From contig JBFMEU010000002.1 of NCBI GenBank assembly GCA_040753155.1, positions 5,633 to 69,632 on the forward strand: DNA of 64,000 nt, in the 5' to 3' direction. Origin of the DNA: Bacillota bacterium. GTDB lineage: Bacteria; Bacillota; Desulfotomaculia; Desulfotomaculales; JBFMEU01. The translations under genes and the position numbers were made by a program. The notes below the pieces were generated by a model, which saw only the letters and a program-made list of their open reading frames with translations, searched no databases and was not told the DNA's origin. Below, one piece after another: positions 2,681 to 56,425 of the stretch (within the stretch, counting starts at the first letter, position 1; each line of letters begins with the position of its first letter).

Positions 2681-2718
2681 GTTTACCATAATCCGGAGTT
2701 GTTGGCCTGTTGAGGTTA

Positions 2719-3146: not shown

Positions 3147-5630
3147 GTGAAAGACCGTTACGATTTTAAAGATCTTGAGGTCAAGTGGCAGCGCCGCTGG
3201 CATGAAGACAAGCTCTACGAGGCGCCTGATTTTTCCGGCCGGCCCAAGTACTACTGCCTGGAGATGTTTCCTTACCCCTCGGGCAAGCTGCACATGGGTC
3301 ATGTCCGGAATTACTCCATCGGGGATGTGGTGGCCCGGTTTAAAACCATGCAGGGGTTTCACGTGCTGCACCCCATGGGCTGGGACGCCTTCGGGCTGCC
3401 CGCTGAAAACGCCGCCATCAAGCACGGAAACATGCACCCGGCCCAGTGGACCATAGACAATATCAACACCATGCGCGATCAGCTCAAGCAGCTGGGGATT
3501 AGCTATGACTGGAGCCGGGAGGTGGCCACCTGCCACCCGGGCTACTACAAGTGGACCCAGTGGCTGTTCCTGCAGCTGTACCGCCGCGGCCTGGCCTATA
3601 AAAAGAAGGCGGCCGTGAACTGGTGCCCCTCCTGCGCCACGGTGCTGGCCAACGAGCAGGTAAAGGAGGGTATTTGCGAGCGCTGTAAGACTGATGTGGA
3701 GAAGAAAGAGCTGGAGCAGTGGTTCTTTAAGATCACCGACTACGCCGGGCGTCTGCTGGAGGATTTGGAAACCCTGCCGGGCTGGCCGGAAAAGGTCAAG
3801 ATCATGCAGGAACACTGGATTGGCCGCAGCGAGGGGGCGGAAATCAAATTCACCATTGACGGCCATGACGATGAGTTCATGGTCTTCACCACCCGGCCGG
3901 ACACGGTGTTCGGGGTCACCTATATGGTGCTGGCCCCAGAGCACCCCCTGGTGGAAAAGCTCATTGCGGGCAAGGAGCAGGCCGGTCAGGTGCGGGACTT
4001 TGTAAATAGAGTGCGCAACCTGAGCGAGATTGCCCGGACCTCCGTTGATGCGGAAAAGGAGGGCATCCTCACCGGCGCTTACTGTATTAACCCCCTGAAC
4101 GGCGAAAAAATTCCCATCCTGGTGGCCAACTACGTGCTGCTGGAGTACGGCACCGGCATGGTCATGGGCGTGCCGGCCCACGACCAGAGGGACTTTGAAT
4201 TTGCCCGGAAGTACAAGCTGCCCGTCCGGGTGGTCATCCAGCCCGAGGGTGTGGAACTGGACCCGGAAACCATGACCGGGGCCTGCGACGGCGAGGGGGT
4301 TATGGTTAATTCCGGCCAGTTTAATGGCGTCCCCAGCCAGGAGGGGATCCGCAAGGTTACGGAATACCTGGAGCAAAACAATCTGGGCCGGGGCCTGATC
4401 AACTACCGCCTGCGGGACTGGCTGATTTCCCGGCAGCGTTACTGGGGCGCCCCCATTCCCATTATTTACTGTGATCAGTGCGGCGCCGTACCGGTTCCCG
4501 ATGCCGACCTGCCGGTAATGCTGCCCCTGGAGGTGGCCTTTGAGCCCACCGGCCGCTCGCCCCTGAATGACAGCCCGGAATTTGTCAGCGCCGCCTGCCC
4601 CGGCTGCGGCGGGCCCGGCAGGCGGGAAACCGACACCATGGACACCTTCATGTGCTCCTCCTGGTACTACTACCGCTACACCAGCCCCCGGAACGAGGAG
4701 GCTGCCTGGGGCGGGGAGCAGGTAAAATACTGGCTGCCCGTGGACCAGTACATCGGCGGGGTGGAGCACGCCATCCTGCACCTGCTGTACAGCCGCTTCT
4801 TTACTAAGTTTCTTTATGACGCGGGCCTGATAGACAACCAGGAGCCCTTTACCAACCTGCTCACCCAGGGCATGGTGCTCAAAGACGGGGCCAAGATGAG
4901 CAAGTCCAAGGGCAATGTGGTCAGTCCCGAAGACATCGTGGGCCGCTACGGGGCCGACACCGCCCGGCTGTTCATCCTGTTCGCCGCCCCGCCGGAGCGG
5001 GACCTGGAGTGGAGCGATCAGGGCGTGGAGGGGTGCTACCGTTTCCTGAACCGGGTCTGGCGCCTGGTCCAGCCCCTGGCGGCAACCCTGCAGAGTAGCA
5101 GCGGCAAACCCAACGCCAACCTGGTGGGGGTAAACCGGGAAATGCGCCGGCTGACCCACCTGACCATCAAGAAAGTCACCGGGGACATTGGCAACCGGTT
5201 TAACTTCAACACCGCCGTCAGCGCCATCATGGAGCTGGTCAACGGCCTGTACCAGTACCGGGAGGTGCCGGAAACCGACCGGGACCCGGCGGTTCTCAAG
5301 GAGGCGGTGGAGTCCATGCTGCTCCTGCTGGCCCCCTTCGCCCCCCACGTGACCGAGGAACTGTGGGAGGTCACCGGCGGCGCCGGCAGCATTCACCTCC
5401 GGCCCTGGCCCGGGTTTGACCCGGCGGCCATGGCGGAGGACGAGGTGACCATAGTGGTGCAGATTAACGGCCGGGTCCGGGACCGGGTGCTGGCGCCCGC
5501 CGGCATACCGGCCGAAGAGATGAAGGAGCAGGTCATGGCCCAGCCCAGGGTTCAGGAACTGATTGCCGGCAAGCAGCTGGTCAAGGTCATCCCGGTGCCC
5601 GGGAAGCTGGTTAATATAGTGATTAAGTAA
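3147..5630 (+). CDS. leuS: Leucine--tRNA ligase
   Basis: 827 aa; HMGH ([10 protein letters not shown]) and KMSKS motifs; SD gggagg before GTG. Confidence 0.97.
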
Positions 5631-5819
5631 GAGGAGGCCCCTGCGCATGACGCAGGGGCCTCTAAGGGTATACAGCCGTATGAATGAGCTTTAACTCATG
5701 TTGACAAAACAATTATCTGAATACGGTTTTAAGTTCAACACCCAGCCTGCCTGCCAAATCACTGATTTCCTTGAAGTCGCCGGCAGGCACAAAGATTAGC
5801 GGGCAGGAGTCCTGGATTT

Positions 5820-7120: not shown

Positions 7121-7217
7121 TGGAGGGGAGAAGTCGGAGTCGAACCGGACTCCCGCCTGGATCGCAGACAGGCCAACGGGTTTGCAGCCCGCGGGGGCCA
7201 CCGGACCCTTTCTCCCC
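7121..7217 (-). tRNA. tRNASec-like tRNA with cysteine identity (anticodon GCA, discriminator U73, 8-bp acceptor stem, long extra arm)
   Basis: Minus-strand sequence: GGGGAGAAAGGGTCCGGTGGCCCCCGCGGGCTGCAAACCCGTTGGCCTGTCTGCGATCCAGGCGGGAGTCCGGTTCGACTCCGACTTCTCCCCTCCA. Acceptor GGGGAGAA/TTCTCCCC. Anticodon loop CTGCAAA. Extra arm GCCTG/CAGGC. T loop GGTTCGACTCC. CCA is encoded. Confidence 0.8.
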
Positions 7218-10814: not shown

Positions 10815-10849
10815 ACAAAGCATTAAAAATTCCGGATTGCTGTCCGGGT

Positions 10850-10911
10850 GAGTCAATGGGGACGGTTCCGGGTGACTCACGAGAGTCACCCGGAACCGTC
10901 CCCATTGACTC
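10850..10911. repeat. D palindrome D1
   Basis: gagtcaatggggacggttccgggtgactc-acgag-agtcacccggaaccgtccccattgactc. Confidence 0.9.
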
Positions 10912-10925
10912 AAAGGCTTACGTTT

Positions 10926-11169
10926 TCAATTTTGATACTTGCTCCAAAACCTCGGCCCAGGTATTGGGCTCCACCATGCGCAGGCGCCTGTCCCTGATCC
11001 GGTAATCCACCCCCGGAATAGCTTTTTTATACAGTACGCCGGGGCCGTTACCTTTACCAGACGGTACAGCCCCAGGACATTGCGGGGCCCCAGATTGCTG
11101 TCCACCTCGGAGGAATAAATCCAGATCAGCCGGGGCAGTTTGACGACGGTGGAGGGGGTGAGCAAGTTA
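10926..11169 (-). pseudogene. Truncated, frameshifted duplicate of the 3' end of the LCP-like gene at 13106-13879
   Basis: Roughly 85-90% nucleotide identity, by eye, to 13106-13345. The similarity stops exactly at the A2 junction (gagcaagtt|agccc). Confidence 0.8.
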
Positions 11170-11285
11170 GCCCTTTGAAACCCGCATCTGTAGGCGGCGG
11201 GTTTCAAAGGGCGGTTAAGTCCAGTATGGACTCGGCTAACATTCAGAGGGGGTTGAATCCCTCTCTGAATGAAGTCTCGTTCAAC
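11170..11285 (+). mobile_element. A element copy A2 (5'-truncated)
   Basis: ...gggcggttaagtccagtatggactcggctaacattcagagggggttgaatccctctctgaatgaagtctcgttcaac, directly followed by H-element sequence catggcgtttccgaag. Confidence 0.8.
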
Positions 11286-11345
11286 CATGGCGTTTCCGAA
11301 GTATGAGATATACGGTCCATTCTGACTCCTGACTCCTGAGTACCT
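11286..11345 (+). repeat. H element fragment H4
   Basis: catggcgtttccgaagtatgagatatacggtccattctgactcctgactcctgagtacc. Confidence 0.8.
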
Positions 11346-11443
11346 TCTGCGCGGAGTACTGGAGTGAGCGGTGATAACGCAGTGCCATAACACCGGTTTC
11401 ACTGAATGTATACTAAATATAAATATTGTGAAGGAATCTGAAG

Positions 11444-11938
11444 ATGTTATTTGAACAAATAACTCAATTTATAGATAAGTACAATTTGCCCTGGTTACTG
11501 CTGGCAATCATTTCCTGGATGGTCATTGTGTCAGTATTTTCCAAAAGGCATTTTTGGCATGCGCTTCCTGTGGGATTTTGGACAATGACAATCGGTACGA
11601 TGCTTGAGCTATTTTTTATAGAGCACAGATTTTGGACTGATAAGTATGTAATGGTGCACATTGGTGAAATAGATCTGTTTGTTATTATCGGGCCGTTCTT
11701 TGTGATAGGTTTGCTTTTAGTAAGGTTCTTACCTGCGAATGGAATTGGCAAATTGCTTGCTGTCTTAGCCTGGTCAGGATTTGCCACAGGAATGGAGTAC
11801 ATTGCCATAAAGATGGGGTTCTTAGATTATCAACCTGGTAAATGGCAGGCTTTATACTCATTATTGGCATATTTTATTTCATTAATGAGCGCTTTGGGCT
11901 TCTATTATGCTTATTATAACAAATCGCCCAGATTATAG
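11444..11938 (+). CDS. AT-rich polytopic membrane protein (possibly CBO0543-like), function unknown
   Basis: 164 aa, 4-5 TM segments. GC content is much lower than its surroundings. Confidence 0.5.
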   Translation: MLFEQITQFIDKYNLPWLLLAIISWMVIVSVFSKRHFWHALPVGFWTMTIGTMLELFFIEHRFWTDKYVMVHIGEIDLFVIIGPFFVIGLLLVRFLPANGIGKLLAVLAWSGFATGMEYIAIKMGFLDYQPGKWQALYSLLAYFISLMSALGFYYAYYNKSPRL

Positions 11939-12006
11939 GTGATGCATAATGGTGGGCCATGGCAGTGATATACCCCTGCGCAAATATTCCTGGTTGCCAT
12001 CCTGCT

Positions 12007-12111
12007 GTTTACATGGACAGTCCCGCATACTACGTTGGAAAAAAGTGAGGAAGGTTGTGCCGTGGGGCACGGGATAAGGAATTGCAGGGCATGGTGGAGG
12101 ACCCTGCCGAA
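12007..12111 (+). pseudogene. Remnant of a second copy of the BON gene 5' region (internally deleted)
   Basis: gtttacatgg...tactacgttggaaaaaag.gagg.aggttgtgccgtggggcacgg matches 10247-10315. gcagggca.ggtggaggaccc.gccgaa matches 10638-10665. Confidence 0.7.
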
Positions 12112-12207
12112 TCTGAAAATAGAATTTCGCACCTGATTATATTGACTTAATTGAACATAATTCATATACTATAAGTGAACATACCACAAACGACAGGAGT
12201 GAACGAT

Positions 12208-12441
12208 ATGCGTGTTTCAGCCACCGAACTTAAGATGAACATGGGCAAGTACATAGAACGCGCCGCCATCGAAGATATCATTATCACCAAAAATGGAAGG
12301 GACGTCGCGCTCCTCACCAATGTCGAAAGCAAAAAGAAAGACGCGCTTAAATCCCTGCGCGGCATCATAAAGGGCGCTGATATCACCCGCGATGAAATCC
12401 GTGAAGTTAGGCTGGGTAGGTACAATGAAAATCCTAATTGA
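12208..12441 (+). CDS. Type II antitoxin (Phd/YefM-like or VapB-like)
   Basis: MRVSATELKMNMGKYIERAAIEDIIITKNGRDVALL; SD acaggag. It overlaps the PIN gene by 17 nt. Confidence 0.75.
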   Translation: MRVSATELKMNMGKYIERAAIEDIIITKNGRDVALLTNVESKKKDALKSLRGIIKGADITRDEIREVRLGRYNENPN

Positions 12442-12835
12442 CACTAATGTAATCATTGATTACCTTGCCGACCGGACGCCCTTCGCGGACCATTCTGAAC
12501 GGGTGTTGGCGCTCTGCGAGAACGGCAAGGTCACCGGTTTGGTAACCGCCAACGCTATAACCGATATCTACTATGTGCTGCGCAAAGTGGTCGGAAGAGA
12601 GAAAGCGCTGGAGGCGATTCGCACGCTTTGTTCCATCCTGGATATCACGGATGTGGTGAAAGCTGATATCCTAAACGCGAGGGAACTAGATATGCACGAC
12701 TATGAGGATGCACTGGCCGCACAGTGCGCAAAGCGGATCAAGGCTGAATATATTGTGACGCGCAACAGCTCCGACTATGCTAACTCCCCGGTTCCCGCAA
12801 TAGAACCATTCGCCTTTCTCACGCAGTTCCAATGA
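12425..12835 (+). CDS. vapC: PIN-domain toxin VapC
   Basis: MKILIDTNVIIDYL...; the acidic residues have PIN-like spacing. Followed by hairpin acgccgcc-gtaa-ggcggt-tttc. Confidence 0.85.
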   Translation: MKILIDTNVIIDYLADRTPFADHSERVLALCENGKVTGLVTANAITDIYYVLRKVVGREKALEAIRTLCSILDITDVVKADILNARELDMHDYEDALAAQCAKRIKAEYIVTRNSSDYANSPVPAIEPFAFLTQFQ

Positions 12836-12862
12836 TCGAAACGCCGCCGTAAGGCGGTTTTC

Positions 12863-12997
12863 TTTATCACTGAACTAATCCGCCCTAAGACCCCCGCCTC
12901 TGTAGGCGGCGGGTTTCAAAGGGCGGTTAAGTCCAGTATGGACTCGGCTAACATTCAGAGGGGGTTGAATCCCCCTCTGAATGAAGTCTCGTTCAAC
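12863..12997 (+). mobile_element. A element copy A3 (full length)
   Basis: TTTATC-actgaactaatccgccctaagaccc...ggcggttaagtccagtatggactcggctaacATTCAGAGGGGGttgaatCCCCCTCTGAATgaagtctcGTTCAAC. Confidence 0.85.
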
Positions 12998-13105: not shown

Positions 13106-13879
13106 TTACGTTTTAAAATCTGACACCTGCTCCAAAACCTTGGTCCAGGTATGGGGCTCCACCACCCGCAGGCGTCTGTCCCTGATCTGGTAGTCCACCC
13201 CCGGGATGGCCTTTTTATACAGTACGCCGGGACCGTTTACCTTTACCAGGCGGTATAGCCCCAGGACATGGCGGGGCCCCAGGTTGCTGTCCACCTCGGT
13301 GGAGTAGATCCAGATCAGCTGGGGCAGTTTGACCACGGTGGAGGGGGTGAGCAAGTTGGCCGCCAGACCCCGGATCTCTGCCTGCAGGCTGTTGGGGCGG
13401 TCGTCGTAATTGCCCTCAAACACGTCCAGCAGGGTGGTCTCATTCTCGCCTATGTCAATGGCCCCCACCACTTCACTCATGTGGCTGAGGGTAGACTGGT
13501 CAATTATCACGTAATACTGGATGGGCTGCCGGAACATCTGCTCCAGCCTGGAGGTCAGCTCTGTTCGCCCCTGCCTGTAATAGGTATCGGCCACGGTAAC
13601 CTCAGCCTGCGGTGTGTCCAGGCAGATAAACAGGGGGATGGACACGATGCCCACCGGCCGGTCCCGGGAGAAGCTCAGCAGGGTTACTGCCTTCAGGTCT
13701 TGCTCATCCGTCCAGAACAGCAGCAGGTTGCCCGCAGTTGATACGGCCGGCGCCGGCAGTTGGTATTCAGGATAAACCGGGCCTGCGGCCCGGGCCGGGT
13801 GAGGGCTAACCAGAAGGAGGACCAGGCAGCAGGTAAGTACTGAGATTGCCGGTCTCACGACGCCACATCCTTTCCACAT
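13106..13879 (-). CDS. Secreted LytR-CpsA-Psr (LCP)-like protein, divergent
   Basis: N-terminal signal/TM segment. LLLFWTDEQD..AVTLLSFSRDRPVGIVSIPLFICLD...QYYVIIDQSTLSHMSEVVGAIDI parallels the LCP core layout. Confidence 0.5.
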   Translation of the reverse strand: MWKGCGVVRPAISVLTCCLVLLLVSPHPARAAGPVYPEYQLPAPAVSTAGNLLLFWTDEQDLKAVTLLSFSRDRPVGIVSIPLFICLDTPQAEVTVADTYYRQGRTELTSRLEQMFRQPIQYYVIIDQSTLSHMSEVVGAIDIGENETTLLDVFEGNYDDRPNSLQAEIRGLAANLLTPSTVVKLPQLIWIYSTEVDSNLGPRHVLGLYRLVKVNGPGVLYKKAIPGVDYQIRDRRLRVVEPHTWTKVLEQVSDFKT

Positions 13880-14477: not shown

Positions 14478-15347
14478 ATGAAGTTGCGTTTGGGACTGCC
14501 CAAGGGAAGCCTTCAGGAGGCCACTTTTCAACTGTTCAAGCGGGCCGGATTCAACATCTCCGTGCGCAGCCGCTCCTACTTTCCGTCAGTTGACGATCCG
14601 GGTCTGGAAATCGTGCTGATGCGGGCCCAGGAGATTCCCCGCTATGTTAATGAAGGAGTTTTGGATGCGGGGATCAGCGGGCTGGACTGGATTCTGGAAA
14701 ATGATGCTGATGTGGTGGAAGTGGCAGATCTGGCCTATTCCAAGCAGACCACCAACCCGATACGCCTGGTGATCGCCGTGGCCAATGACAGTGAGATTAA
14801 AAATGTCGGGGACCTGCAGGGGAAGCGGATTGCCACCGAGCTGGTCAAGGTCACTCAGAAATACCTGGAGCGGCACGGGGTAAAGGCCAATGTCGAGTAC
14901 TCCTACGGGGCGACCGAAGTCAAGGTGCCGCACCTGGTGGATGCCATCGCCGACCTTACCGAAACCGGAAGCTCACTGCGGGCCAACAAGCTAAGGGTTA
15001 TTGCCACCATTTTGGAGTCCACCACCAGGCTGCACGCCAACCACCAGTCCTGGGAAGATCTCTGGAAGCGGGAAAAGCTGCAAAACCTGGCCGTTTTACT
15101 GCAGGGGGCACTGCGGGCCGACTCCAAGGCGGGCCTTAAAATGAACGTTCCCGGCGACCGGCTGGACGAGGTGCTGGCCATTTTGCCGGCTATGAAACAC
15201 CCTACGGTGTCCAAGCTGATTAACAGTGACTGGGTGGCGGTGGAGGCCGTCCTGGATGAAAAGCAGGCCCGGGAACTGATTCCGGTCTTGCTGCGCACCG
15301 GCGCCCAGGACATCATCGAGTACCCGTTGAACAAAGTAATACCGTAA
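14478..15347 (+). CDS. hisG: ATP phosphoribosyltransferase (long form)
   Basis: MKLRLGLPKGSLQEATFQLFKRAGF...; 289 aa with the C-terminal regulatory domain. Confidence 0.92.
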   Translation: MKLRLGLPKGSLQEATFQLFKRAGFNISVRSRSYFPSVDDPGLEIVLMRAQEIPRYVNEGVLDAGISGLDWILENDADVVEVADLAYSKQTTNPIRLVIAVANDSEIKNVGDLQGKRIATELVKVTQKYLERHGVKANVEYSYGATEVKVPHLVDAIADLTETGSSLRANKLRVIATILESTTRLHANHQSWEDLWKREKLQNLAVLLQGALRADSKAGLKMNVPGDRLDEVLAILPAMKHPTVSKLINSDWVAVEAVLDEKQARELIPVLLRTGAQDIIEYPLNKVIP

Positions 15348-15525
15348 ACCTTTACTAAGCCTTCGACCTTTCCGGTGAAGGTTTATTTTTTTTCTGTTTG
15401 CCGGCAAAGGGGTGTCAGTGGGGTTTGTTCACTGGCAGGCCCCCTGGCAAAAGTTGGCTGGCCGGAGGGGACACGGTTTTTCATAAAAAACAACGGGTGA
15501 GCAAGAATACAATTATGGTGGCAAG

Positions 15526-16394: not shown

Positions 16395-16595
16395 TGGCCC
16401 GTCAAGTCAGGCGGCTTACCCGTTCCAGCTACAACAGAATGATTGCCGGAGTTTGCGGCGGGCTGGGCGAGTATTTTGGTTTGGACCCCACGGTGGTGCG
16501 GGTGGGCTATATAGTGTTTTCCGTACTTTCAGCGGCCTTTCCGGGCATTTTTGTTTACCTGCTGGCCTGGCTGATTGTACCCAGGGATGATTTCT

Positions 16596-16597
<2 letters not shown>
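16395..16597 (+). CDS. PspC-domain membrane protein
   Basis: RLTRSSYNRMIAGVCGGLGEYFGLDPTVVRVGYIVF. ATG 16395 follows gtgggag; the ORF track starts at 16319. Confidence 0.8.
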
Positions 16598-16832
<235 letters not shown>

Positions 16833-18684: not shown

Positions 18685-21030
18685 TTACCTCCTTGGTGTG
18701 CCGGGTGTAGTTTTCACCTCTCCCAGGCGCCTTTCCAGGCGCCCCAATTCAGCCAGGCAGGCAGTTGTTTTTTGGCCGGCCGGCCTTTGTTCCAGCGCCT
18801 CCCGGAGATCTTTAAGCACTCCGGCCAGGGGCGCGGCCAGTTGTGAACCGGCTGCAAGCCGGATTGCCTCAATCAGGTGACGGAAGTCCTTGTCCCGGGG
18901 ATTTACGGATGCCCGGCGGGCCGAGAGGAAGAATAACCGCTCGTCGGCGCGGAGTGTGGTCGGGGATAGGCTCTCCCGGATGTAGTTCCTGACTTTTTCC
19001 CTTTCCCGGGGGCTCAGGGTGTCAGCAAAATTGATCACCAGCATGAGCCGGGCCGGGCCCTGCTGCAGGCTGCCGCCGCCCGGCCCCTGCCGGATTAGCC
19101 GGCTCAGGGCCGGCAGTTGGTCCCGGTCGGCGGTGTTCAGCACGTGCCTGGCGTTTAAGAAAAACAATACTGACTGGTCCCCCTTGTTGAACGAGATTTC
19201 ATTCAGAGGGGGATTCAATCCCCTCTGAATGTTAGCCGGGTCCATACTGGACTTAACCGCCCTTTGAAACCAGCTGCCTGCAGAGGCCGGGGTCTTAGGG
19301 CGGATTAGTTCAGTGATAAAACTTGAGGTTGTTTCCCGGTGCCTGCGGTGAACCGAGTCCAGGCCCGGTGTGTCAATCAGGACCAGGCCGCTCAGCAGTT
19401 CCGAGGGATGGGTGATTTCAACCCGGCTCAGCCGGAAGCTGTCCGGCCAGGCCAGGTGGCGTACGAGGGCCAGTTTGCCGGCGGCGGTATCCAGGCTCAG
19501 GGTTAAGGTATTTTCCTCCCGGAAGGTAACCTGGACGGCAACCGGCAAATCGGCGGTTATTCTTGTGGCCGGAACCGCCTGAAACAGGGTGGGCGCCGTG
19601 TTTAGCCCCGGCTGCCCGGCCAGGCCGGCGGCAAAGAGCCGGGCGGCGCTGTGGAGTTGATTCAGCAGTTGGTATTTACTTACCTTCTTGCGGCCGGCCT
19701 GGCTAATCAGCTCCAGACGGCCCAGCTCAGGCCCGGACTCCGGCTTCCCCAGCCAGCCGGTAAGAGCCTTGACTTCCTCCCGGCAGTACAGGGCCGCTTC
19801 TCCGTCCAGATGGATAACCGGCACGTCAATCTGCAGCGGATAGTGGAGGGTGGCCTGTTTAACCTGACCCTGCCTGACCCGGGTCAGGCAGGAGGTGGTG
19901 GGGCCGTCTCCGGTGGGCAGGATTTCCTCACCCAGCATGACGTTGATAAAAGTTGTCTTGCCGGAGGAAAAGCCCCCGGCTATAGTCACTGGAAATGCCC
20001 CTTGCTCCAGCCGGCGCCTCAGGGCGTCAGCTTGCCCGGTGGCCGGCAGGCCGGTCATTGAAGGGTCGGCGCAGAACCGGTCCAGCAGCTCCAGCAGGGA
20101 CCGCCTTACCTGGATCAGGCCCTTATTGGCCTGGTCCGGGTGGGCCGGCGGCTGATATTTCAGCCGGCCCTCCCGGGCCGGGCCGCTCAGGTTGCGGCGG
20201 GCGGCAATTCTGGCCCCGGCCCGGGACTGCAGGAGTTCCCCGGCCTGTAAAATTGAGGCCGCCCTTTGCTTGAGGTCCCATAAATCAGCCAGGAACTCCA
20301 GGTCGCCGGGCCGGGCCAGGGTGGTCTTCAGGGCTTTGGGGATAGCCTCGTCCATAGTCCGCAAATTCCGGTTGAGTTCCTCAATCCGGCGGGCGGCTGC
20401 CTCCACTTCCAGCAGGGTGCGCAGGGAGTTTACAGCTGCAGGGTTGGTAATGTCAATGGCCAAGGGCTGCAAGCCGGCTTTGAAAATTTGCCGCAGGCAG
20501 GCTGCGGTAACCCCCGGGGCAGAGTCGTCCGGATGGCCGGTGTTATGATTCAAGATGAAAATAATGTCCCGGGGATTAATTTGGCGCCGCCGGGCCAGTT
20601 CCTCCAGAAACTGCTTGCCGGCATTATCAAGGCCCCGCTGGTGCAAAAGGAAGAGCGCCAAATCGGCGCCGGCCGCCGCCTCCATGGCGGCCGCCCGGTG
20701 CTCCGGGCTGGTGTCGAAGCCAGGTGTGTCCAAGAGCAGGCACTTTTGCAGCAGCCTGCAGGGCAGAGCCACCTCCCGTACCCTCCGGGCGCGGGCCGGG
20801 CCGGAGACGGCGGGGCCATAAACATACTTGACAGTCACCATGGTGGTGGGAACCACATCCACTGGTGCGACATAATTTTCCAGCAGGGCGTTAATTAAAG
20901 TGGATTTGCCGGCGTTATAGGGGCCGGCAACAGCCACCGTCGGCAGGCGGACTCCGGCAGGCCAGTTCTCCAGCAGCATGTCCGCCTGGCGAATAAAGTT
21001 TTCTGCCGCCGTCATGGTATATACCTCCAA
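18685..21030 (-). CDS. Tandem-GTPase dynamin-like protein (BDLP/DynA-like), carrying an in-frame A-element insertion
   Basis: Module 1: G1 GPYNAGKST and G3 DTPGFD. Module 2: G1 GGFSSGKTT, G2 region PTGDGPTTSCLT, G3 DTPGLDS and NFAD. 781 aa. Confidence 0.75.
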   Translation of the reverse strand: MEVYTMTAAENFIRQADMLLENWPAGVRLPTVAVAGPYNAGKSTLINALLENYVAPVDVVPTTMVTVKYVYGPAVSGPARARRVREVALPCRLLQKCLLLDTPGFDTSPEHRAAAMEAAAGADLALFLLHQRGLDNAGKQFLEELARRRQINPRDIIFILNHNTGHPDDSAPGVTAACLRQIFKAGLQPLAIDITNPAAVNSLRTLLEVEAAARRIEELNRNLRTMDEAIPKALKTTLARPGDLEFLADLWDLKQRAASILQAGELLQSRAGARIAARRNLSGPAREGRLKYQPPAHPDQANKGLIQVRRSLLELLDRFCADPSMTGLPATGQADALRRRLEQGAFPVTIAGGFSSGKTTFINVMLGEEILPTGDGPTTSCLTRVRQGQVKQATLHYPLQIDVPVIHLDGEAALYCREEVKALTGWLGKPESGPELGRLELISQAGRKKVSKYQLLNQLHSAARLFAAGLAGQPGLNTAPTLFQAVPATRITADLPVAVQVTFREENTLTLSLDTAAGKLALVRHLAWPDSFRLSRVEITHPSELLSGLVLIDTPGLDSVHRRHRETTSSFITELIRPKTPASAGSWFQRAVKSSMDPANIQRGLNPPLNEISFNKGDQSVLFFLNARHVLNTADRDQLPALSRLIRQGPGGGSLQQGPARLMLVINFADTLSPREREKVRNYIRESLSPTTLRADERLFFLSARRASVNPRDKDFRHLIEAIRLAAGSQLAAPLAGVLKDLREALEQRPAGQKTTACLAELGRLERRLGEVKTTPGTPRR
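19186..19320 (-). mobile_element. A element copy A4, inserted in frame (135 nt = 45 codons) in the dynamin-like gene
   Basis: gttgaacgagatttcATTCAGAGGGGGattcaatCCCCTCTGAAT...ggcggattagttcagtGATAAA. It is translated as ...LIRPKTPASAGSWFQRAVKSSMDPANIQRGLNPPLNEISF... Confidence 0.85.
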
Positions 21031-21096
21031 TTGGTTATACTGTTATATATTTACTGTGATCAGGCTGTAAATATACCGAAAATAGTTACCCGCTTG

Positions 21097-21241
21097 GTAA
21101 CTATTCAGGAGTCGGGAGTCAGGAGTCGGGAGTCAGGAGTCGGGAGTCAGAAGTCAGGAGTCAGAAGTCAGGAGTCAGGAGTCAGAATGAGAAAACCGGC
21201 GAAAACATTACTTCTGAATTCTGAATACCTGAATAAGTAAC
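21097..21241 (+). repeat. H element copy H6 (minimal: 11 heptamers, 8 codons, 3' arm)
   Basis: gtaactattc-(aggagtc/gggagtc/agaagtc)x11-agaatgagaaaaccggcgaaaacatt-acttctgaattctgaatacctgaataagtaac. Confidence 0.9.
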
Positions 21242-21335
21242 TGGTTTTTTGTGTGTCAGCACCGGGAATAGGCCGGTGCTATTGCTCCTGCAATTTCCTT
21301 ATGCTATAATAACTAAGTGTGTAAAACCATAGCCT

Positions 21336-21474
21336 ATAAAGAAGACTTGGTTCAGGTGGAGTTTTAACCCATACGTTGGGGACATTCCTGTCCTCAGAGA
21401 AATACCCAAGCTTCAGCAGGTGTGTCCCCTTTCCTTATGCGAGGGCGGGGTCTTACAGGCTGTGCGAAGATAAA
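21336..21474 (+). repeat. C element copy C1
   Basis: ataaaGAAGACTTGGTTCAGgtggagttttaacccatacgttGGGGACAttcctgtcctcagagaaatacccaagcttcagcaggtgTGTCCCCtttccttatgcgagggcggggtCTTACAGGCTGTGCGAAGATAAAg. Confidence 0.85.
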
Positions 21475-22870: not shown

Positions 22871-23767
22871 ATGGCCAGCCAAGATAGTAGGCGTAGTGTT
22901 GGCGGTCTTTTGGCCGCAGCCCGGGCTTACCTGAGGGAATGTGGCTCGGAGAGCCCCGGCCTTGATGCCGAGGTGCTTCTGGCCCACTGCCTGGGGGCCG
23001 GCCGGCTGGATCTGTACCGGGCGCCGGACCGGATCCCGGACAGCGGCCAGGCTTCCGGGTACCTGGATTTGATTGCCAGGCGCGGCCGGGGGGAACCGGT
23101 GGCCTATCTGACCGGACATAAGGAGTTTATGGGGCTCGACCTGGCGGTCGGGCCTCCTGTGCTGATTCCCCGCCCGGAAACCGAGCTGCTGGTGGAGCAG
23201 GCCCTGGAACTGCTGGGCTTATCCCTGGCGGAAAGACCGGGCGGCCGGCTGGCGGTGGATGTGGGCGCCGGCAGCGGGGCCATTGCTGTCAGCCTGGCGG
23301 TTTTTATGCCCCGGGTGCGGGTGCTGGCCACCGATATATCCGGGGAGGCCCTGGCCGTGGCCCGCCGCAATGCGGCCCGCCACGGGGTGGCAAGGCAGGT
23401 TTCCTTTTTTCAGGGAGACTTGCTGACCCCTCTGACTATACCCGCCCTGCAGGGGCAGGTGGACCTGGTGGCCGCCAACCTGCCCTACATCCCGGCCGGT
23501 GACCTGGAGGCTTTGCCCCGGGATGTCCGGGCCTACGAGCCCCGGCTGGCCCTGAACGGCGGTCCTGACGGCCTGTCCCTCTACCGCCGGCTGGTGCCCG
23601 ATGCCGGCAGGCTGCTGCGGCCCGGCGGCTTTTTGCTGATGGAGATTGGCCCCGGCCAGGGGCGGGCCTGCCTGGGCCTGGTACCGGCCCCCGTCTGGGA
23701 GAGTGTGCTGCTGCCCGACCTGGCCGGGCGGGAGCGTCTGGTGGTGGCAGTTAAAATGAGTCAATAG
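22871..23767 (+). CDS. prmC: Release-factor glutamine N5-methyltransferase
   Basis: VDVGAGSGAIAV SAM motif and the NPPY-type motif (here ANLPYIP). Immediately follows prfA. Confidence 0.88.
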   Translation: MASQDSRRSVGGLLAAARAYLRECGSESPGLDAEVLLAHCLGAGRLDLYRAPDRIPDSGQASGYLDLIARRGRGEPVAYLTGHKEFMGLDLAVGPPVLIPRPETELLVEQALELLGLSLAERPGGRLAVDVGAGSGAIAVSLAVFMPRVRVLATDISGEALAVARRNAARHGVARQVSFFQGDLLTPLTIPALQGQVDLVAANLPYIPAGDLEALPRDVRAYEPRLALNGGPDGLSLYRRLVPDAGRLLRPGGFLLMEIGPGQGRACLGLVPAPVWESVLLPDLAGRERLVVAVKMSQ

Positions 23768-23818
23768 GGACGGTTCCTGGTGACTCGCGCGAGTCACCCG
23801 AAACCGTCCCTATTGACT
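23759..23818. repeat. D palindrome D2, overlapping both convergent stop codons
   Basis: agtcaatagggacggttcctggtgactcgcgcgagtcacccgaaaccgtccctattgact. Confidence 0.9.
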
Positions 23819-24492
23819 TACAGCAAATTGGTTCCCGCGTGCCAGGCGGTGGCGGCGCCGATAAACATGACCGCCAGCCCGGTGACTGCCGCCAGGCGGG
23901 TCCAGGCGCGGCGGCTGATAAAATCCCCGGCCAGGTGGGAAACCTTGAGGAAAACCAGTCCCACACCAATCATGGCCAGGGCGGCCCCGGCACCAAAGGC
24001 CAGCACCACGCCCAGGCCCGCGGCCAGCGTTCCGGCACTGATGGATAAAAGCAGCGCCGCCAGGGCCCCGGGGCAGGGCATCAGCCCGTTCATGAAACCC
24101 AGCAGGACCAGGGTTGAAAGGTCCAGGGGGCGGTCTTGCTTGCTCAGGGAGAAATGATGGTGGTTGCAGCAGGGCTTGCGCCTGGGCAGCAGCCGGTAGC
24201 CCACCGCCACAATCAGCAGGCCGGATAAAAGCTGCAGCCACAGCCTGATCCGGTCCGGGGTCAATTCGGTGCCGGTGGCCACCAGGGCTGCCGCCGAGTG
24301 GGCCGTCACCGCCAGCAACACCACCACCAGGGTGTGGGTGGCGGCGGAGATAAGCCCCAGCAGAACAGCATGTATTGCCCGGCCCCGGGAAAGGACCAGG
24401 TAGGCCCCCATCACCCCCTTGCCGTGGCCGGGTTCCAGAGCGTGCAAAGCTCCCAGGCCAAAGGCGGAAAAAAGATAAAGCAGGTAGCTCAT
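23818..24492 (-). CDS. NicO/UreH-like metal (Ni/Co/Zn) transporter family membrane protein
   Basis: LHALEPGHGKG motif, His/Cys-rich loop KPCCNHHH, and GFMNGLMPCPGAL. Next to zur-znuACB. Confidence 0.55.
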   Translation of the reverse strand: MSYLLYLFSAFGLGALHALEPGHGKGVMGAYLVLSRGRAIHAVLLGLISAATHTLVVVLLAVTAHSAAALVATGTELTPDRIRLWLQLLSGLLIVAVGYRLLPRRKPCCNHHHFSLSKQDRPLDLSTLVLLGFMNGLMPCPGALAALLLSISAGTLAAGLGVVLAFGAGAALAMIGVGLVFLKVSHLAGDFISRRAWTRLAAVTGLAVMFIGAATAWHAGTNLL

Positions 24493-24527: not shown

Positions 24528-24756
24528 GATAAAGAAGACTTGGTTCAGGTGGGGTTTTAACCCATACGTTGGGGACATTCCTCCGAAGGAGGTGTGTCCC
24601 CTACCCGCTAAACCTTAGTCGCACTTATTTCGAGCTTACAGCCTGTTAATCCCATTAGTTGGGGACATTCCTGTCCTCAGAGAAATACCCAAGCTTCAGC
24701 AGGTGTGTCCCCTTTCCTTATGCGGTGGCGGGGTCTTACAGGCTGTGCGAAGATAA
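24528..24756 (+). repeat. C element copy C2 (double-module version)
   Basis: Module 1 contains GGGGACAttcctccgaaggaggtgTGTCCCC. An internal cttacagcctgt then leads to module 2, GGGGACAttcctgtcctcag...caggtgTGTCCCC. Ends cttacaggctgtgcgaaGATAAA. Confidence 0.85.
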
Positions 24757-24757
24757 A

Positions 24758-27252: not shown

Positions 27253-28131
27253 GTGGATTACATGTTTGAGTACGAGTTTATGGTCCGGGCCATGCTTGCC
27301 GGCCTGGTGGCCGGCATAATTTGCCCCGCGGTAGGGGTTTTCGTGGTTATGCGGCGCTATTCCTTTATGGCCGATACCCTGGCCCATGTTTCCCTGGCCG
27401 GGGTGGCGGCGGGCGCCCTGCTGGGCGTATATCCCGCCGTTACCACCCTTGGCTTTGCCATGGCCGCCGCCACAGTCATTGAGAAGCTGCGCTCCGGGCC
27501 AAGGCTGTACGGCGAGGCCGTGCTGGCGCTGATGATGAGCGGCGGTCTGGCCCTGGCCGTGGTGCTGATCAGCCTGTCCCGGGGCATGAGCATTGACATC
27601 TTCGGCTATCTTTTTGGCAGCGTCCTTACCGTCGGCCCGGGTGACCTGTGGCTGATCGCCGGCCTGGGCTGCGCTGTTCTGGCCGTGATAATATTATTCT
27701 ACAAGGAGCTCTACTACATATCCTTTGATGAAGAGGCAGCCCGGGTGGCCGGCCTGCCGGTGGATCGTTTGAATTTTATCTTTGTGCTGCTGGTGGCGGT
27801 TACCGTGGCGGTCTCCATGCGCATTGTGGGGACCCTGCTGGTCAGCGCCCTGATGGTGATTCCCGTGCTCACCGCCCTGCTGGTGGCCGGCAGCTTCCGC
27901 AGCGCCTTCATAACCGCCGTATTCCTGGGAGTGGTATCAGTTGCCCTGGGGCTTACCGGCTCATACTACCTGGGCATTGCCGCCGGCGGCGCCGTAGTCC
28001 TTACCGCCCTGGTCTTTTTCGTCCTTACCCTGAGCGGCAAACAGCTGCGCCAGGCCTGGCAGCGCCGCCTGTTGGCCCCGGGCGCCCCGAAAAAGGTGAA
28101 AGAGGAACTGGTAACAGGGGATGGCTCTTGA
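27253..28131 (+). CDS. znuB: Zinc ABC transporter permease
   Basis: 292 aa, polytopic, ABC-3 family pattern (FDEEAARVAGLPV). Confidence 0.88.
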   Translation: MDYMFEYEFMVRAMLAGLVAGIICPAVGVFVVMRRYSFMADTLAHVSLAGVAAGALLGVYPAVTTLGFAMAAATVIEKLRSGPRLYGEAVLALMMSGGLALAVVLISLSRGMSIDIFGYLFGSVLTVGPGDLWLIAGLGCAVLAVIILFYKELYYISFDEEAARVAGLPVDRLNFIFVLLVAVTVAVSMRIVGTLLVSALMVIPVLTALLVAGSFRSAFITAVFLGVVSVALGLTGSYYLGIAAGGAVVLTALVFFVLTLSGKQLRQAWQRRLLAPGAPKKVKEELVTGDGS

Positions 28132-28191
28132 GTCAAGGGGGACGGTTCCTGGCGACTCACGTGAGTCGCCAGGAACCGTCCCCCTTGACTC
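28130..28191. repeat. D palindrome D3 (perfect 31+31 nt), overlapping the znuB stop codon
   Basis: gagtcaagggggacggttcctggcgactcac|gtgagtcgccaggaaccgtcccccttgactc. Confidence 0.95.
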
Positions 28192-28206
28192 AAAACGGAG
28201 GTGGAC

Positions 28207-31033: not shown

Positions 31034-31099
31034 CTGGAGGAAACCCGCGGTTTGTGTAGAACTGAATTCCGTAGGGATTTGGAACAACAACTCCGGCGT

Positions 31100-31246
31100 C
31101 TTACAGGCTGTACGAAGATAAAGAAGACTTGGTTCAGGGGGGGGTTTAACCCATACGTTGGGGACATTCCTCCGAAGGAGGTGTGTCTCCTATCCGCTAA
31201 ACCTTAGTCGCACTTATTTCGAGTTTACAGCTTGTACGAAGATAAA
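31100..31246 (+). repeat. C element copy C3 (module 1 bounded by two copies of the 23-nt end sequence)
   Basis: cttacaggctgtacgaagataaa-gaagacttggttcag...GGGGACAttcctccgaaggaggtgTGTCTCC...tcgcacttatttcgag-tttacagcttgtacgaagataaa. Confidence 0.85.
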
Positions 31247-33073: not shown

Positions 33074-33721
33074 TTACGTGAAGTGTTGAAAAAGTGCTTT
33101 GTCATATTTCTGGGTTGTACTCAAAATGTAGATGTCATAATAATTTCTTGGGCGTGTGCTGAATATGCTACGGTTTAGAATCGTCTCGACTTTCTCTGCC
33201 ATAACTGTTTCAATATTGTAGCCCCAGAGACGGATACGGACAGATTCGTCAAAAATACCGCTGAATTCATAGGGAACAGCGGACGGCGTCATCACATCCC
33301 CGGCAGAAATATCAATGGAAAGCGGCGTTACGATAGTGTCATACACGGCATTCATTCTCACACGAAATCCGCCGTAGCGGTCATCCTTACGGATGGGGAT
33401 GACGGAGACGACATTAAATTTCACATCATCATTTAAGTTAATACTGCAGATGCTTTGAACCGCTTGTGTTATCTGCCCTTCCGTCAGGGGCAGATCGCGC
33501 AGCGTAGCGTCCAGATCCATGGTCGAGCGGGTATCCAAACCCACGATGGCCGCAACAAGCATTCCGCCCTTAATTATGAATTTTTCCTGATATTCTGATT
33601 TGGACAGACGCTCCAAAAAGCGTTCGAACATGTAGTTCTGCAAAACTACCTGAGCCGCAATGTTATTCTATTTTGCATAGCGGTTGATGCGACCTTTCAG
33701 GCTTATGGCCTTGGAACTCAT
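33074..33721 (-). pseudogene. AbiEii/AbiGii-family nucleotidyltransferase toxin, with premature in-frame TAG and probably C-terminally short; no AbiEi partner
   Basis: MSSKAISLKGRINRYAK*NNIAAQVVLQNYMFERFLERLSKSEYQEKFIIKGGML... The TAG is at 33668-33670. An A element abuts the start codon. Confidence 0.7.
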
Positions 33722-33732
33722 AGTAGTACATC

Positions 33733-33850
33733 TCCGCCCTAAGACCCCCGCCTCTGTAGGCGGCGGGTTTCAAAGGGCGGTTAAGTCCAGTATGAACTCG
33801 GCTAACATTCAAAGGGGGTTGAATCCCCCTCTGAATGAAGTCTCGTTCAA
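33733..33850 (+). mobile_element. A element copy A5 (5'-truncated); contains the stop codon of the MCP gene
   Basis: ccgccctaagacccccgcctctgtaggcggcgggtttcaaagggcggttaagtccagtatgaactcggctaacattcaaagggggttgaatccccctctgaatgaagtctcgttcaa. Confidence 0.8.
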
Positions 33851-35457
33851 GAACTTACACGAAACCTGTCTATCTGGCTTTTAATGCTGCCGGCCAGATT
33901 GTCAAGCTCTCCGGCCAGTGAAGATAACATATCCACCGAGCAAACGTAGTCCGGTACGGTCTTCGCTCCCCCGGTCCCCGTAAGAGTCTCTACGGTCGCC
34001 GCCACTTCTTTTATGCCTTTTTTGATATGCCCGGAGGCATCGGCTATTTCATTTATTCTTTCGCCGGTGTCCTTTATTCCGCCGTATATTTCCTTGATCA
34101 AAAACCTTGCCTCGTCCGCCGCCCCCGACCCTTCCCGGGCTACCTCGTAACCTCTTTCCAGTATTATTTTAACATTTTCACTTTCTTTTAAGACTAGCTG
34201 TGCTATTCCGGCGATCTCCCCGCTGGCTGCGGACGACTGGCCGGCCAGTTTCCTCACCTCTTCGGCCACCACAGTGAATCCCAGTCCGTTTTCTCCGGCC
34301 CTTGCCGCCTCTATGGACGCGTTTAACGCCAGAAGGTTGGTCTGGCTGGCTATGGTTTTCACCTGTTCCACTATTTCGAAAACCGTTCTGATGAGGCTGT
34401 GCAGATTATTAATAGATCTGACGCCCTCAATGGTCAGATCGTGACTTTCGTTCATCTTGTTCATAAGCTTCTCCAGTCGAATCCTGCTTTTTTCGGATAT
34501 ATCCATCAGATTTTGACTGGATGCATCTGTCTCTTCTATGCTGTCTGATATTTTTCCGATGGATTCTTCCATCTTTTTCACTGCCCAGCCGGTATCCCTC
34601 ATAAGATAAGTCTGTCTCTCGGCCACCTGGCCAAGCTGCCGGCTGGTGTCGGTCAGCGTGCTGACCGTTGTCTGGGATCCCTTAATAAGGGTTTCCAGTC
34701 CGGAAAGCATTTTATTTAGGCTTCCGCCGATCTTTTCCATCTCGTTGCCGGCGTTTTTATCCTCCACCCTTGTTGAAAGGTCACCCCCACCGGCCCTGTT
34801 CATAACGGCAATCAGGTTTTCCAGAGGCCCGGCCATCCTCCTGGCGCCCAGGCAGCAAATCATAAATGCCGCAAGCACGGAACTTATGCCGACAAGAAAA
34901 GAAATGTGCCTCAGCCGGTAAACCGGATCAAGGTAATCATCCTCCGCCAAGCCTACAACGTAAAGCCAGTTTTTAGCCGGAATGACTTCATAAGCTATGG
35001 TGTTTTTACCGTCGCCGGTGTCTTTGCTGAAAAGGCCGTCTTTATTATTAAATAGATCCCTTATTTCCTCTTTGGTCAGTTGGATTTCCATACCTTCGGA
35101 CAGCATGACACTGCCATCCATGTCGTAAACTTGAATGCCGGCCCGTATGTTTTTATCCCGGAAACCATTGTTTTCATTATTGATATATACCTGCGCGTAA
35201 TTCAATAGCTGTCTGCTGTCGTAGGTATTTGCCATCATGGCAATATTTTCTCCGGCATGCTTGGCCGAGACCGCTATTCTTTCCTCCATTAACTCTTTCA
35301 GGTTTTGCTTGCCCGTGTTGTAAACCGCGAATCCCAGGCTGCCAACCGCTGTCACTATCACGAGAGTGAAAAGCGCAAGCAGTTTATACTGTATTCCCAG
35401 TTTATGCCATGATAGAAAAAGAGAAACTTTCCGGCCGAATGTTTTAATTCTTTGCAC
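33847..35457 (-). CDS. Methyl-accepting chemotaxis protein (N-terminal TM, extracellular sensor, HAMP, signalling domain)
   Basis: ASQTNLLALNASIEAARAGENGLGFTVVAEEVRKLA is the highly conserved MCP hairpin tip. 536 aa. Confidence 0.9.
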   Translation of the reverse strand: MQRIKTFGRKVSLFLSWHKLGIQYKLLALFTLVIVTAVGSLGFAVYNTGKQNLKELMEERIAVSAKHAGENIAMMANTYDSRQLLNYAQVYINNENNGFRDKNIRAGIQVYDMDGSVMLSEGMEIQLTKEEIRDLFNNKDGLFSKDTGDGKNTIAYEVIPAKNWLYVVGLAEDDYLDPVYRLRHISFLVGISSVLAAFMICCLGARRMAGPLENLIAVMNRAGGGDLSTRVEDKNAGNEMEKIGGSLNKMLSGLETLIKGSQTTVSTLTDTSRQLGQVAERQTYLMRDTGWAVKKMEESIGKISDSIEETDASSQNLMDISEKSRIRLEKLMNKMNESHDLTIEGVRSINNLHSLIRTVFEIVEQVKTIASQTNLLALNASIEAARAGENGLGFTVVAEEVRKLAGQSSAASGEIAGIAQLVLKESENVKIILERGYEVAREGSGAADEARFLIKEIYGGIKDTGERINEIADASGHIKKGIKEVAATVETLTGTGGAKTVPDYVCSVDMLSSLAGELDNLAGSIKSQIDRFRVSS

Positions 35458-35682
35458 CTATTACCACCCCGCTGACTCCTGAGTAGTTGCGTTTTTTCTA
35501 AGTTGTTATTAAAAAAACCGGCTGTTGCCGGAATTAAAAGGGAGAAGGGATATCTTGCGCGAGTTCTCATTAAATAAAGCCTTTGTATCGAAGACTTTAT
35601 TTAATCACTGCTATAATAACGAATTGTTTTTAAGCTGCAATTAAGGTTTATCATAATATTGGTTAAGGAAGTGTAAAATTTT

Positions 35683-56312: not shown

Positions 56313-56425
<113 letters not shown>

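Follow-up and report, generated by a model that had tools for sequence, protein, structure and literature searches.

Palindrome-associated transposable elements (PATEs) of the IS200/IS605 type are recognised by the lack of terminal inverted repeats, palindromes close to the termini, insertion without target duplication, a tetra- or pentanucleotide target retained on one side only and a length too short for a transposase (PMC3119063; PMC7290912). ISDra2 inserts 3' of TTGAT (PMC2806898), and for IS608 the insertion site is 3' of TTAC, the terminal sequence is TCAA and a pyrimidine is preferred past the cleavage point (PMC5934647). In-frame insertion into genes is known for Rickettsia palindromic elements (RPEs), ERIC, BOX, QMITE1 and some cyanobacterial MITEs, miniature transposable elements with inverted repeats (review PMC10969869). 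Herein, we describe a repeat, termed element A, in a 64,000-nt stretch of DNA of a Bacillota bacterium (GenBank assembly GCA_040753155.1, contig JBFMEU010000002.1, positions 5,633 to 69,632; hereafter the window), one copy of which lies in frame in the second GTPase domain of a bacterial dynamin-like protein. We favour, with moderate confidence, the reading that A is a transposase-less, PATE-like element of the IS200/IS605 type that inserted in frame in this gene, whose protein is probably still translated under relaxed constraint.

Five further sites in the window resemble the segment 19186-19320 (89-95% identity, E-values of 1e-39 to 1e-58), values that indicate a real repeat family rather than chance similarity, and the aligned copies share sharp boundaries. 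The first-pass annotation of this DNA had described a 781-codon open reading frame (ORF) that stays open across a 135-nt copy of A. Both the open frame and the repeat proved real, and the extra peptide quoted there is the actual translation of the ORF; the DNA gained, however, is 129 nt, or 43 codons, at 19187-19315 on the minus strand. This extent was fixed by the empty/filled comparison with L001, the DNA locus of the orthologue P0002, and the same boundaries recur in a HelD-family gene described below. On the gene strand the unit reads 5'-CACTGAAC...CTCGTTCAA-3' and encodes (I)TELIRPKTPASAGSWFQRAVKSSMDPANIQRGLNPPLNEISF(N), with translated junctions FI|TE...FN|K and junction peptides ...ETTSSFITELIR and ...NEISFNK. 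The target pentanucleotide, TTTAT, is part of Phe-Ile codons at 19316-19320 on the minus strand (ATAAA on the window's forward strand) and corresponds to TTCAT in the orthologue's empty site. This ATAAA, like the G at 19186, belongs to the host or target; both exist already in that empty site.

Alignment with orthologues had been named beforehand as the test of the insertion, and its outcome was clear. A protein-database search supplied 27 full-length homologues (P0001-P0027). Apart from the window protein, the segment was present in P0001 alone, which is 98% identical to that protein, and was absent from all 26 remaining homologues (P0002-P0027, 28-72% identity); the insert-free proteins include P0002 (~70% identical), P0003-5 (~50%) and proteins of Pelotomaculum, Desulfofundulus and Desulfotomaculaceae (~30%). 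At L001 the empty site is contiguous, ...ACC CTT GAC TTC ATC|AAG GGG GAC CAG..., and the filled site of the window reads ...ACC TCA AGT TTT ATC ACT GAA ... TCG TTC AAC|AAG GGG GAC CAG..., a net gain of 129 nt and 43 codons. L002, the contig of P0001 from a JGI metagenome, is ~99% identical to the window over 8.4 kb and shares the insertion site; in addition, it carries a private 15-nt in-frame deletion of a small palindrome, (G/A)GTCCA-TAC-TGGACT, which lies at 19239-19253 in the window. Given that the insertion is found in the window and L002 and not in L001, it is younger than the split from the L001 lineage (synonymous divergence, dS = 0.63), and these comparisons place it in a recent common ancestor of the two ~99%-identical strains, whose in-gene copies share about 4 changes relative to the consensus of A.

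Two readings would remove the insertion altogether, namely an ancestral segment that was lost in all other lineages and an assembly error; we regard both as exceedingly improbable. Nothing specific speaks for them beyond the origin of the window in a metagenome-assembled genome (MAG) and the tendency of repeats to break assemblies. Against them stand the 26 homologues without the segment and the 95% DNA identity that it shares with repeats between genes and with copies from unrelated genera. Moreover, the NCBI MAG-like window and the JGI contig are independent assemblies that agree on the site and differ in their private changes, which makes an assembly artefact unlikely. The locus offers a dated and clean case in which a mobile element adds 43 residues inside a GTPase domain and leaves the gene unbroken.

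A second, independent empty/filled pair was found in a 790-aa HelD-family helicase, where A lies in frame shortly after the SFRCT motif in Lutispora saccharofermentans (L007, 4403-6775), a Clostridiaceae MAG (L004, 1298-3670) and a metagenome contig (L019). The nearest HelD orthologues without A measure 747 and 749 aa. The empty sites read ...AAA TTT ATT GAT... (L034) and ...AAG TTT ATG GAT... (L035), and the filled site reads ...AAA TTT ATC ACT GAA ... TCG TTC AAT GAT...; the gain is exactly 129 nt and lies directly 3' of a pre-existing TTTAT, without duplication. Target duplication was absent from both pairs, that is, from the window compared with L001 and from L007/L004 compared with L034/L035. 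Because TTYAT is there beforehand in both empty sites, 'GATAAA' at the end of the 135-nt repeat represents conserved target rather than cargo.

The top strand of A, recognised by 5'-TTNAT|CACTG...TCAA-3', consists of 5'-CACTGAAC, a long left-end hairpin, a 13-bp right-end hairpin and CTCGTTCAA-3'; together with the target, the left end is TTNAT|CACTGAACTAATCCGCCC and the right end ...CATTCAGAGGGGGTTGAATCCCCCTCTGAATGAAGTCTCGTTCAA. All 36 copies compared start at TTGAACGAG, and 27/27 end at CAGTG+ATNAA, the ATNAA motif of the right context beginning with A in 26 of the 27. TTNAT precedes 27/27 copies on the top strand, one variant at the last position being allowed, and no position varies more among near-identical copies than its third base (top strand: T21/G5/C1). 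In 26/36 copies, TCAA is followed by a pyrimidine. There are no real terminal inverted repeats, the ends TTGAACGAG... and ...CAGTG sharing only an offset 5-bp TGAAC/GTTCA, and no motif or repeat common to both flanks was found among the 36 copies. In the dynamin-like gene, hairpin 1 (19200-19231), the subterminal palindrome of the right end, has a 13-bp stem 13 nt from the TCAA end, and hairpin 2 (19246-19314) is the long imperfect palindrome of the left end, the apical stem of which is weakened by four clustered substitutions in this copy. Folding of A gave minimum free energies of -56 to -64 kcal/mol (z = -4.1 and -5.6), and the hairpin pairs are kept in 14 diverse copies; a role of the hairpins in A is suggested by these thermodynamics and by analogy. 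CTAA precedes both hairpins, but no convincing scheme of IS608-style guide/cleavage pairing was derived from it, and none is claimed.

Given that this anatomy and target agree with the published criteria for PATEs and IS200/IS605 elements, we classed A as a PATE-like non-autonomous element. Like PATEs, it has neither terminal inverted repeats nor target duplication, carries near-terminal palindromes at both ends and, at 129 nt, clearly has no room for a transposase gene. Insertion 3' of a short oligonucleotide that is kept on the left flank is shared with PATEs and with ISDra2 (TTNAT for A, TTGAT for ISDra2), and the TCAA right end and the preference for a pyrimidine after the cleavage point are shared with IS608. 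In the PATEs of Haloquadratum, too, the families are homogeneous and of high copy number, insertions are strain-specific, and conglomerates with other repeats occur. In contrast to PATEs, the A family spans a 55%-GC Desulfotomaculia-like MAG and 37-43%-GC Lutispora and Clostridiaceae genomes at 91-95% identity, and three of its copies are read through in ORFs, whereas a limited literature search found no in-frame translated PATE insertions.

On this model, a Y1/HUH TnpA supplied in trans would integrate A as single-stranded DNA, exactly 3' of TTNAT and without target duplication. Elements of the IS200/IS605 type characteristically transpose as one specific DNA strand, with a bias to the lagging-strand template, and excise precisely; the TnpA that moves a PATE belongs to an element with related ends. 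One copy landed 3' of TT(C/T)AT in the Phe-Ile codons that end the helix after G3/switch II in GTPase domain 2. With a length of 129 = 3 x 43 and the stop-free top-strand frame hit by chance, the ORF stayed open. The host gene has probably been translated since then; it has evolved with a ratio of nonsynonymous to synonymous rates (omega) close to 1, and was probably impaired or made less constrained.

A different origin of the element is unlikely in our assessment, though it deserves consideration. A might instead be a REP/REPIN-like unit mobilised by a RAYT, a derivative of an IS91 or rolling-circle element, or a repeat spread by recombination or gene conversion, with TTNAT forming part of the repeat itself. 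In keeping with such an origin, no transposase was found in 10 ORFs of the window or on the contigs L036 and L037, the nearly constant ATAAA might itself terminate the element, CTTG or TTTG stands at the end of several left flanks as in IS91, and A occurs in mosaic repeat clusters, as with BIMEs. However, TTYAT was already present in both empty sites, the gain is 129 nt and not 135, and the third base of the pentanucleotide is the position that varies most among otherwise near-identical copies; most left flanks, moreover, lack CTTG or GTTC. REP/REPIN sequences are 20-40-nt palindromes arranged as inverted doublets of one unit, whereas the two hairpins of A are unrelated in sequence and length.

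A resemblance to RPEs had also been proposed by the first-pass annotation. It holds in so far as A is a mobile repeat inserted in frame; the anatomy is that of IS200/IS605 elements and PATEs, and insertion into an ORF is exceptional. As with RPEs, A is a repeat of ~100-150 nt with hairpin potential that lies in frame in unrelated protein-coding genes, and the added peptide falls at fold-compatible positions, the hosts of A being P-loop NTPases. RPEs, however, belong to another phylum, no sign of a relationship in sequence was seen, and insertion into ORFs is the rule for them (44 cases in R. conorii) and the exception for A; A, in turn, has a defined one-sided target, and its single open frame and a length divisible by three are what chance would give. 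Membership of A in the RPE families is therefore implausible, and the likeness is one of behaviour. Unlike for RPEs, a concrete mechanism can be proposed for A: IS200/IS605-type transposition, 3' of TTNAT, duplication-free and potentially with precise excision. Other intragenic bacterial MITEs (ERIC, Correia/NEMIS, pneumococcal BOX, Coxiella QMITE1 and the MITEs of Anabaena) resemble A as small non-autonomous elements that sometimes produce in-frame fusions or ORF extensions, examples for A being the lengthened TOBE-domain protein and the chemotaxis gene with a borrowed stop codon, both described below; classical MITEs possess terminal inverted repeats related to a DDE transposon and target-site duplications, and A has neither.

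The consensus of A has exactly one stop-free frame among the six, and it is the frame read in the dynamin-like gene. The idea that A is designed to be translated was examined and set aside: at least one open frame occurs in 58% of composition-matched shuffles, which is not evidence of adaptation, and the prior for a length divisible by three is one in three. The open frame looks like survivorship rather than design, and we estimate that ~1 in 6 random intragenic insertions of A would be non-disruptive. It is doubtful that A is a 'coding-compatible' single-strand transposon derivative acting as a reversible, horizontally spreading in-frame modifier or switch of P-loop NTPases (a dynamin-like GTPase, a HelD helicase) across classes of Firmicutes. 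If this were true, A would be a Firmicute counterpart of RPEs with a known mechanism, its length of 3 x 43 nt and its stop-free frame would open essential or useful genes to it as a translated, disordered loop at the protein surface, and precise excision of the IS200/IS605 type would make its insertions fully reversible.

The window contains six copies of A, four of full length and two truncated, and five of the six are intergenic or lie at gene ends. Besides the copy in the dynamin-like gene, full-length intergenic copies are located at 2718-2852 (minus strand), at 12863-12997 (plus strand), where the copy equals the consensus, and at 35821-35955 (plus strand), upstream of a gene for a methyl-accepting chemotaxis protein (MCP). 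Of the truncated copies, both on the plus strand, the one at 33733-33853 lacks the tip of the left end, and the one at 11170-11285 is cut to 116 nt. When the A peptide was used as query, about 30 distinct 'hypothetical proteins' (57-79 aa) were obtained from one MAG, annotated as 'Bacillota bacterium' with tags AB1815_ (P0029-P0063). One of them, P0056 (annotated as 59 aa), equals window 33705-33881 exactly, flanks included, and corresponds to the copy at 33733-33853; these proteins are no more than the open frame of intergenic A copies with random flanks, and hence spurious gene calls. The remaining ones mark further copies elsewhere in this MAG, at least 30 besides the six of the window. When the same search was read for copies inside genes, it gave almost only such short ORF calls over intergenic copies. 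In-ORF insertion thus accounts for one case among about 36 or more distinct copies of this lineage, and three gene cases are known overall. The effect on annotation reaches real proteins as well: two are 43 residues longer through A, and a TOBE-domain protein, considered below, is extended by about 45. The family stands out for its high copy number in one MAG and for three read-through insertions, two of which are in P-loop NTPase genes.

An exact 27-mer scan located A in Lutispora saccharofermentans, in one MAG each of Lutispora and Clostridiaceae and in numerous metagenome contigs, many of which end inside A. Over their whole length, the copies of Lutispora and Clostridiaceae are 91-95% identical to the consensus, and those in the lineage of the window are 97-100% identical; the genomes of the former have 37-43% GC, as against 55% here. 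Identity above 90% across genomes of such different composition points to recent horizontal spread among anaerobic Firmicutes. No matches to A were obtained in the plasmids, phages and viral contigs searched. Lacking an Rfam family and an annotated plasmid or phage record, the A family appears to be undescribed. Recent mobility is shown by repeat clusters, of A and of other families, that are present in L002 and absent from the window, and vice versa; a comparison of contigs L010-L033 with the window for presence/absence alleles gave no overlap in unique sequence. In a Lutispora subfamily of A, the tip of hairpin 2 bears a further hairpin of 45 nt, …TTGCCC-GATA-GGGGCAA… (L006 3110-3286, L017 3959-4138 and L003 5614-5790).

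The host gene lies on the minus strand. Its ORF, 18685-21030, is open through 781 codons, and the listed TTG start at 21030 overlaps the Shine-Dalgarno sequence GGAGG at 21024-21028. An ATG at 21015 sits 8 nt past GGAGG, the database orthologue P0001 uses the same start, and a promoter-like pair, TTTACA-N16-TATATA, lies upstream; the gene most likely spans 18685-21015 and encodes 776 aa. Pfam detected MMR_HSR1 at residues 31-161 (59 bits) and Dynamin_N from residue 348 (109.6 bits; cut-off 27). A family profile searched against solved structures matched Cj-DLP1/2 of Campylobacter, Nostoc BDLP, SynDLP, mitofusins and IniA, and Foldseek with the AlphaFold model of the host protein returned the same top list (Cj-DLP, BDLP, SynDLP, mitofusin). 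The host is a bacterial dynamin-like protein with two GTPase modules. As in other dynamin-like proteins with two modules (fused in the DynA type and paired in Cj-DLP1/2; BDLP; SynDLP), an N-terminal and a second dynamin-type GTPase domain are present, each followed by long helical stalk segments as in bacterial dynamin-like proteins; the identity to the solved structures is low, at 12-16%. The motifs of module 2, G1 or P-loop GGFSSGKT (19954-19977), G3 DTPG (19363-19374; residues 548-551 of the 776-aa form) and the G4-like NFAD (19021-19032; invariant F and D columns), all on the minus strand, are invariant across the 28 sequences.

As first proposed, the insert lies between the G3 motif and the following strand, SVLFFLNA. 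Its assignment to switch II and the core beta-sheet, and with it the expectation that it would be disruptive, did not find structural support. In the AlphaFold model of the host protein (mean confidence score, pLDDT, 76), G3 at residues 548-551 is followed by a helix at 557-571, residues 572-612 with a pLDDT of 25-37 and almost no secondary structure, and a strand at 615-621. In the model of the insert-free P0002, a helix at 575-586 is joined through a 3-residue turn to a strand at 590-596, so that the flanking helix and strand are predicted alike with and without the insert. By these models, the insertion site is the turn that links the post-switch-II helix to strand beta4 and is not in the core of the sheet, and the protein is predicted to have gained a 43-residue disordered loop in place of the 3-residue turn. 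The loops that bind the nucleotide in Ras-like GTPases emerge from the strands at their C-terminal ends, and the turn into the N-terminal end of beta4 is on the opposite face; by this topology, the turn that carries the insert is predicted to face away from the nucleotide pocket. No additional residues occur at the alpha2-beta4 turn in the other dynamin-like members examined.

The evolutionary rates of the host gene differ with the time span compared. Over the long term, between the window and L001, omega is 0.28. Between the window and L002, both of which carry A, there are 12 substitutions, 9 nonsynonymous and 3 synonymous, and omega is about 1.1; the C-terminal half outside A has 0 synonymous and 6 nonsynonymous changes. 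By comparison, 11 neighbouring genes on the same contig have 8 synonymous and 4 nonsynonymous changes (omega 0.17) at an equal proportion of synonymous differences (pS) of 0.005. The nonsynonymous excess over the neighbours has p = 0.002 (binomial on site share) and p = 0.05 (one-sided Fisher test); tested against the gene's own long-term omega of 0.28, the counts give p = 0.03, and they are fully compatible with omega = 1. When polarised with P0002, the changes are G299S, L377P, G612E and Q614R in L002 and S653G, A686T and A704V in the window. Seven of the nine nonsynonymous changes fall in variable columns or inside the insert; L377P lies two residues past the G2 Thr region, in a column that is hydrophobic for the most part. 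This pattern suggests that the constraint on the dynamin-like gene has been relaxed since the insertion, which probably impaired the gene or lowered its constraint. Since the promoter-like site, Shine-Dalgarno sequence, frame and all G motifs are intact, the gene is probably still translated.

The same changes could be read more severely, in that the loop abolished the function of domain 2 or of the protein and the gene is a young pseudogene still without a stop or frameshift. We think this possible, though rather less likely than not to apply here. The omega of ~1.1 and the lack of synonymous changes in the C-terminal half are as expected of a dead gene, as are a nonsynonymous rate ~5 times that of the 11 neighbours at equal pS and the L377P change near G2 in L002; furthermore, the strains have diverged by just 0.5%, so that the lack of stops is weak evidence of function. 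The nonsynonymous excess thus lends some support to the pseudogene alternative raised earlier. On the other side, the extra deletion of the sister strain is a multiple of three, the frame, all G motifs, the Shine-Dalgarno sequence and the promoter-like site have been kept, most of the nine changes avoid conserved columns, the domain fold is unchanged in AlphaFold, and the ~4 shared changes relative to the consensus imply time since insertion without disruption.

The HelD-family gene tolerates the same element: in a comparison of genomes at dS = 0.14, its omega is 0.14 for the whole gene and 0.16 for the part downstream of the insert, indicating that in-frame A copies can sit in genes still under selection. 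The copy of A in it has a compensating -1/+1 indel pair, by which the frame is switched inside A and then restored. A third host is a TOBE-domain gene of the molybdate-binding type (L008 3511-3846 and L014 330-665), which a whole A copy near the 3' end has lengthened from ~66 to 111 aa; this copy has lost 3 nt. All three copies inside ORFs thus have frame-preserving indels only (-15 nt in L002, -1/+1 in HelD and -3 nt in TOBE), and the maintenance of the frame after insertion looks selected. The alternative of a tolerated surface loop, also raised in the first pass, gains from the modelled loop and from the HelD precedent under purifying selection. The two independent insertions into P-loop NTPases form a natural experiment with contrasting fates, HelD being constrained and the dynamin-like gene apparently relaxed, and the contrast bears on the tolerance of insertions at helix-strand turns.

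The in-frame indels also argue against removal or bypass of the insert after transcription by a self-splicing intron, an intein or translational bypass, since they indicate that the copies are translated. This alternative, likewise proposed at the outset, is very improbable. In its favour, the insert RNA is strongly structured (-56 kcal/mol, z = -4). However, Rfam at the gathering score detected only a selenocysteine tRNA in the whole window and no family, intron or ribozyme on A; in a scan of the consensus, sbcD at 20.9 bits (cut-off 40) and an HDV-like match at 18.7 bits (cut-off 50) were rejected as chance. With 43 residues the insert is far too short for an intein, the junctions FI|TE and FN|K lack the Cys/Ser/Thr and His-Asn signatures, and bypass is unnecessary given an open frame.

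Several observations weigh against our interpretation of A as a PATE-like element that entered a gene still in use. The empty site reads TTCAT and the filled site TTTAT, so that the target match is deduced over a synonymous change that separates species at dS = 0.63. Compensatory changes were seen in 0/45 hairpin pairs among the 14 copies, a family too uniform for an informative test. No cognate tnpA or tnpB was detected in the 10 large window ORFs (Pfam) or in L036 and L037, two contigs of related assemblies. Finally, the selection signal consists of only 12 substitutions, mostly in variable columns, and compensatory or adaptive change could have produced it.

Some copies of A border DNA of unusual composition. 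Direct-orientation pairs at 33733-35955 and 11170-12997 bracket accessory DNA of 38-54% GC in a core of 57-66% GC; the former segment contains the MCP gene (33847-35457, minus strand), and in the latter lie genes for a PIN-domain protein (12392-12835) and a membrane protein (11444-11938). Both pairs have a truncated downstream copy (116-121 nt). These pairs may reflect cargo capture or the boundaries of islands. The TGA stop of the MCP ORF is supplied by TTGAAC, with which the neighbouring copy of A begins (33847-33853), and an aminotransferase ORF of Lutispora (L017, 4138-5379) ends at the very start of its adjacent copy. The truncated copy at 11170-11285 adjoins a 255-nt duplicate (10918-11172; 87-92% identical) of the 3' end of a 257-aa ORF at 13106-13879 (region 13106-13361), which resembles the replacement-3'-end signature of an integrated segment.

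Further repeat families occur in the window. Tandem arrays of 7 nt (GAGTCAG, GAGTGTG and variants) lie at 480-633, 16595-16678, 21095-21192, 35656-35739 and 56290-56345 and are part of dispersed repeats of ~180-200 nt, such as 16640-16836/54244-54440 and 1591-1771/56701-56881; one repeat of this type is a strain-specific insertion in L002, at the position of window 15346-15353. Another dispersed family, 44-141 nt long (core ...GGGGTCTTACAGGCTGTGCGAAGATAAA / ATAAAGAAGACTTGGTTCAGG...), was found at 21334-21474, 24529-24757, 31079-31235, 36191-36283 and 40589-40729, often beside A copies or heptamer arrays, and thereby forms mosaic repeat clusters. A family of 66-nt near-perfect palindromes (TGAGTCAATGGGGACGGTTCC...GGAACCGTCCCCATTGACTCA) lies between genes at 10849-10914, 23757-23822, 28129-28194 and 61029-61092. 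Seven tandem copies of a 12-nt unit (CCTTCTTTAATG) are located at 61307-61419, inside an ORF without a Pfam match (61204-62097, minus strand). At 3141-5648, each strand of one 2.5-kb stretch has an open frame of about 830 codons. Pfam gave no match for the minus-strand ORF, and the plus-strand ORF probably encodes the alpha-glucan phosphorylase whose gene neighbours the orthologous gene in L001. The selenocysteine tRNA gene lies at 7125-7217 on the minus strand (Rfam tRNA-Sec, 51 bits).

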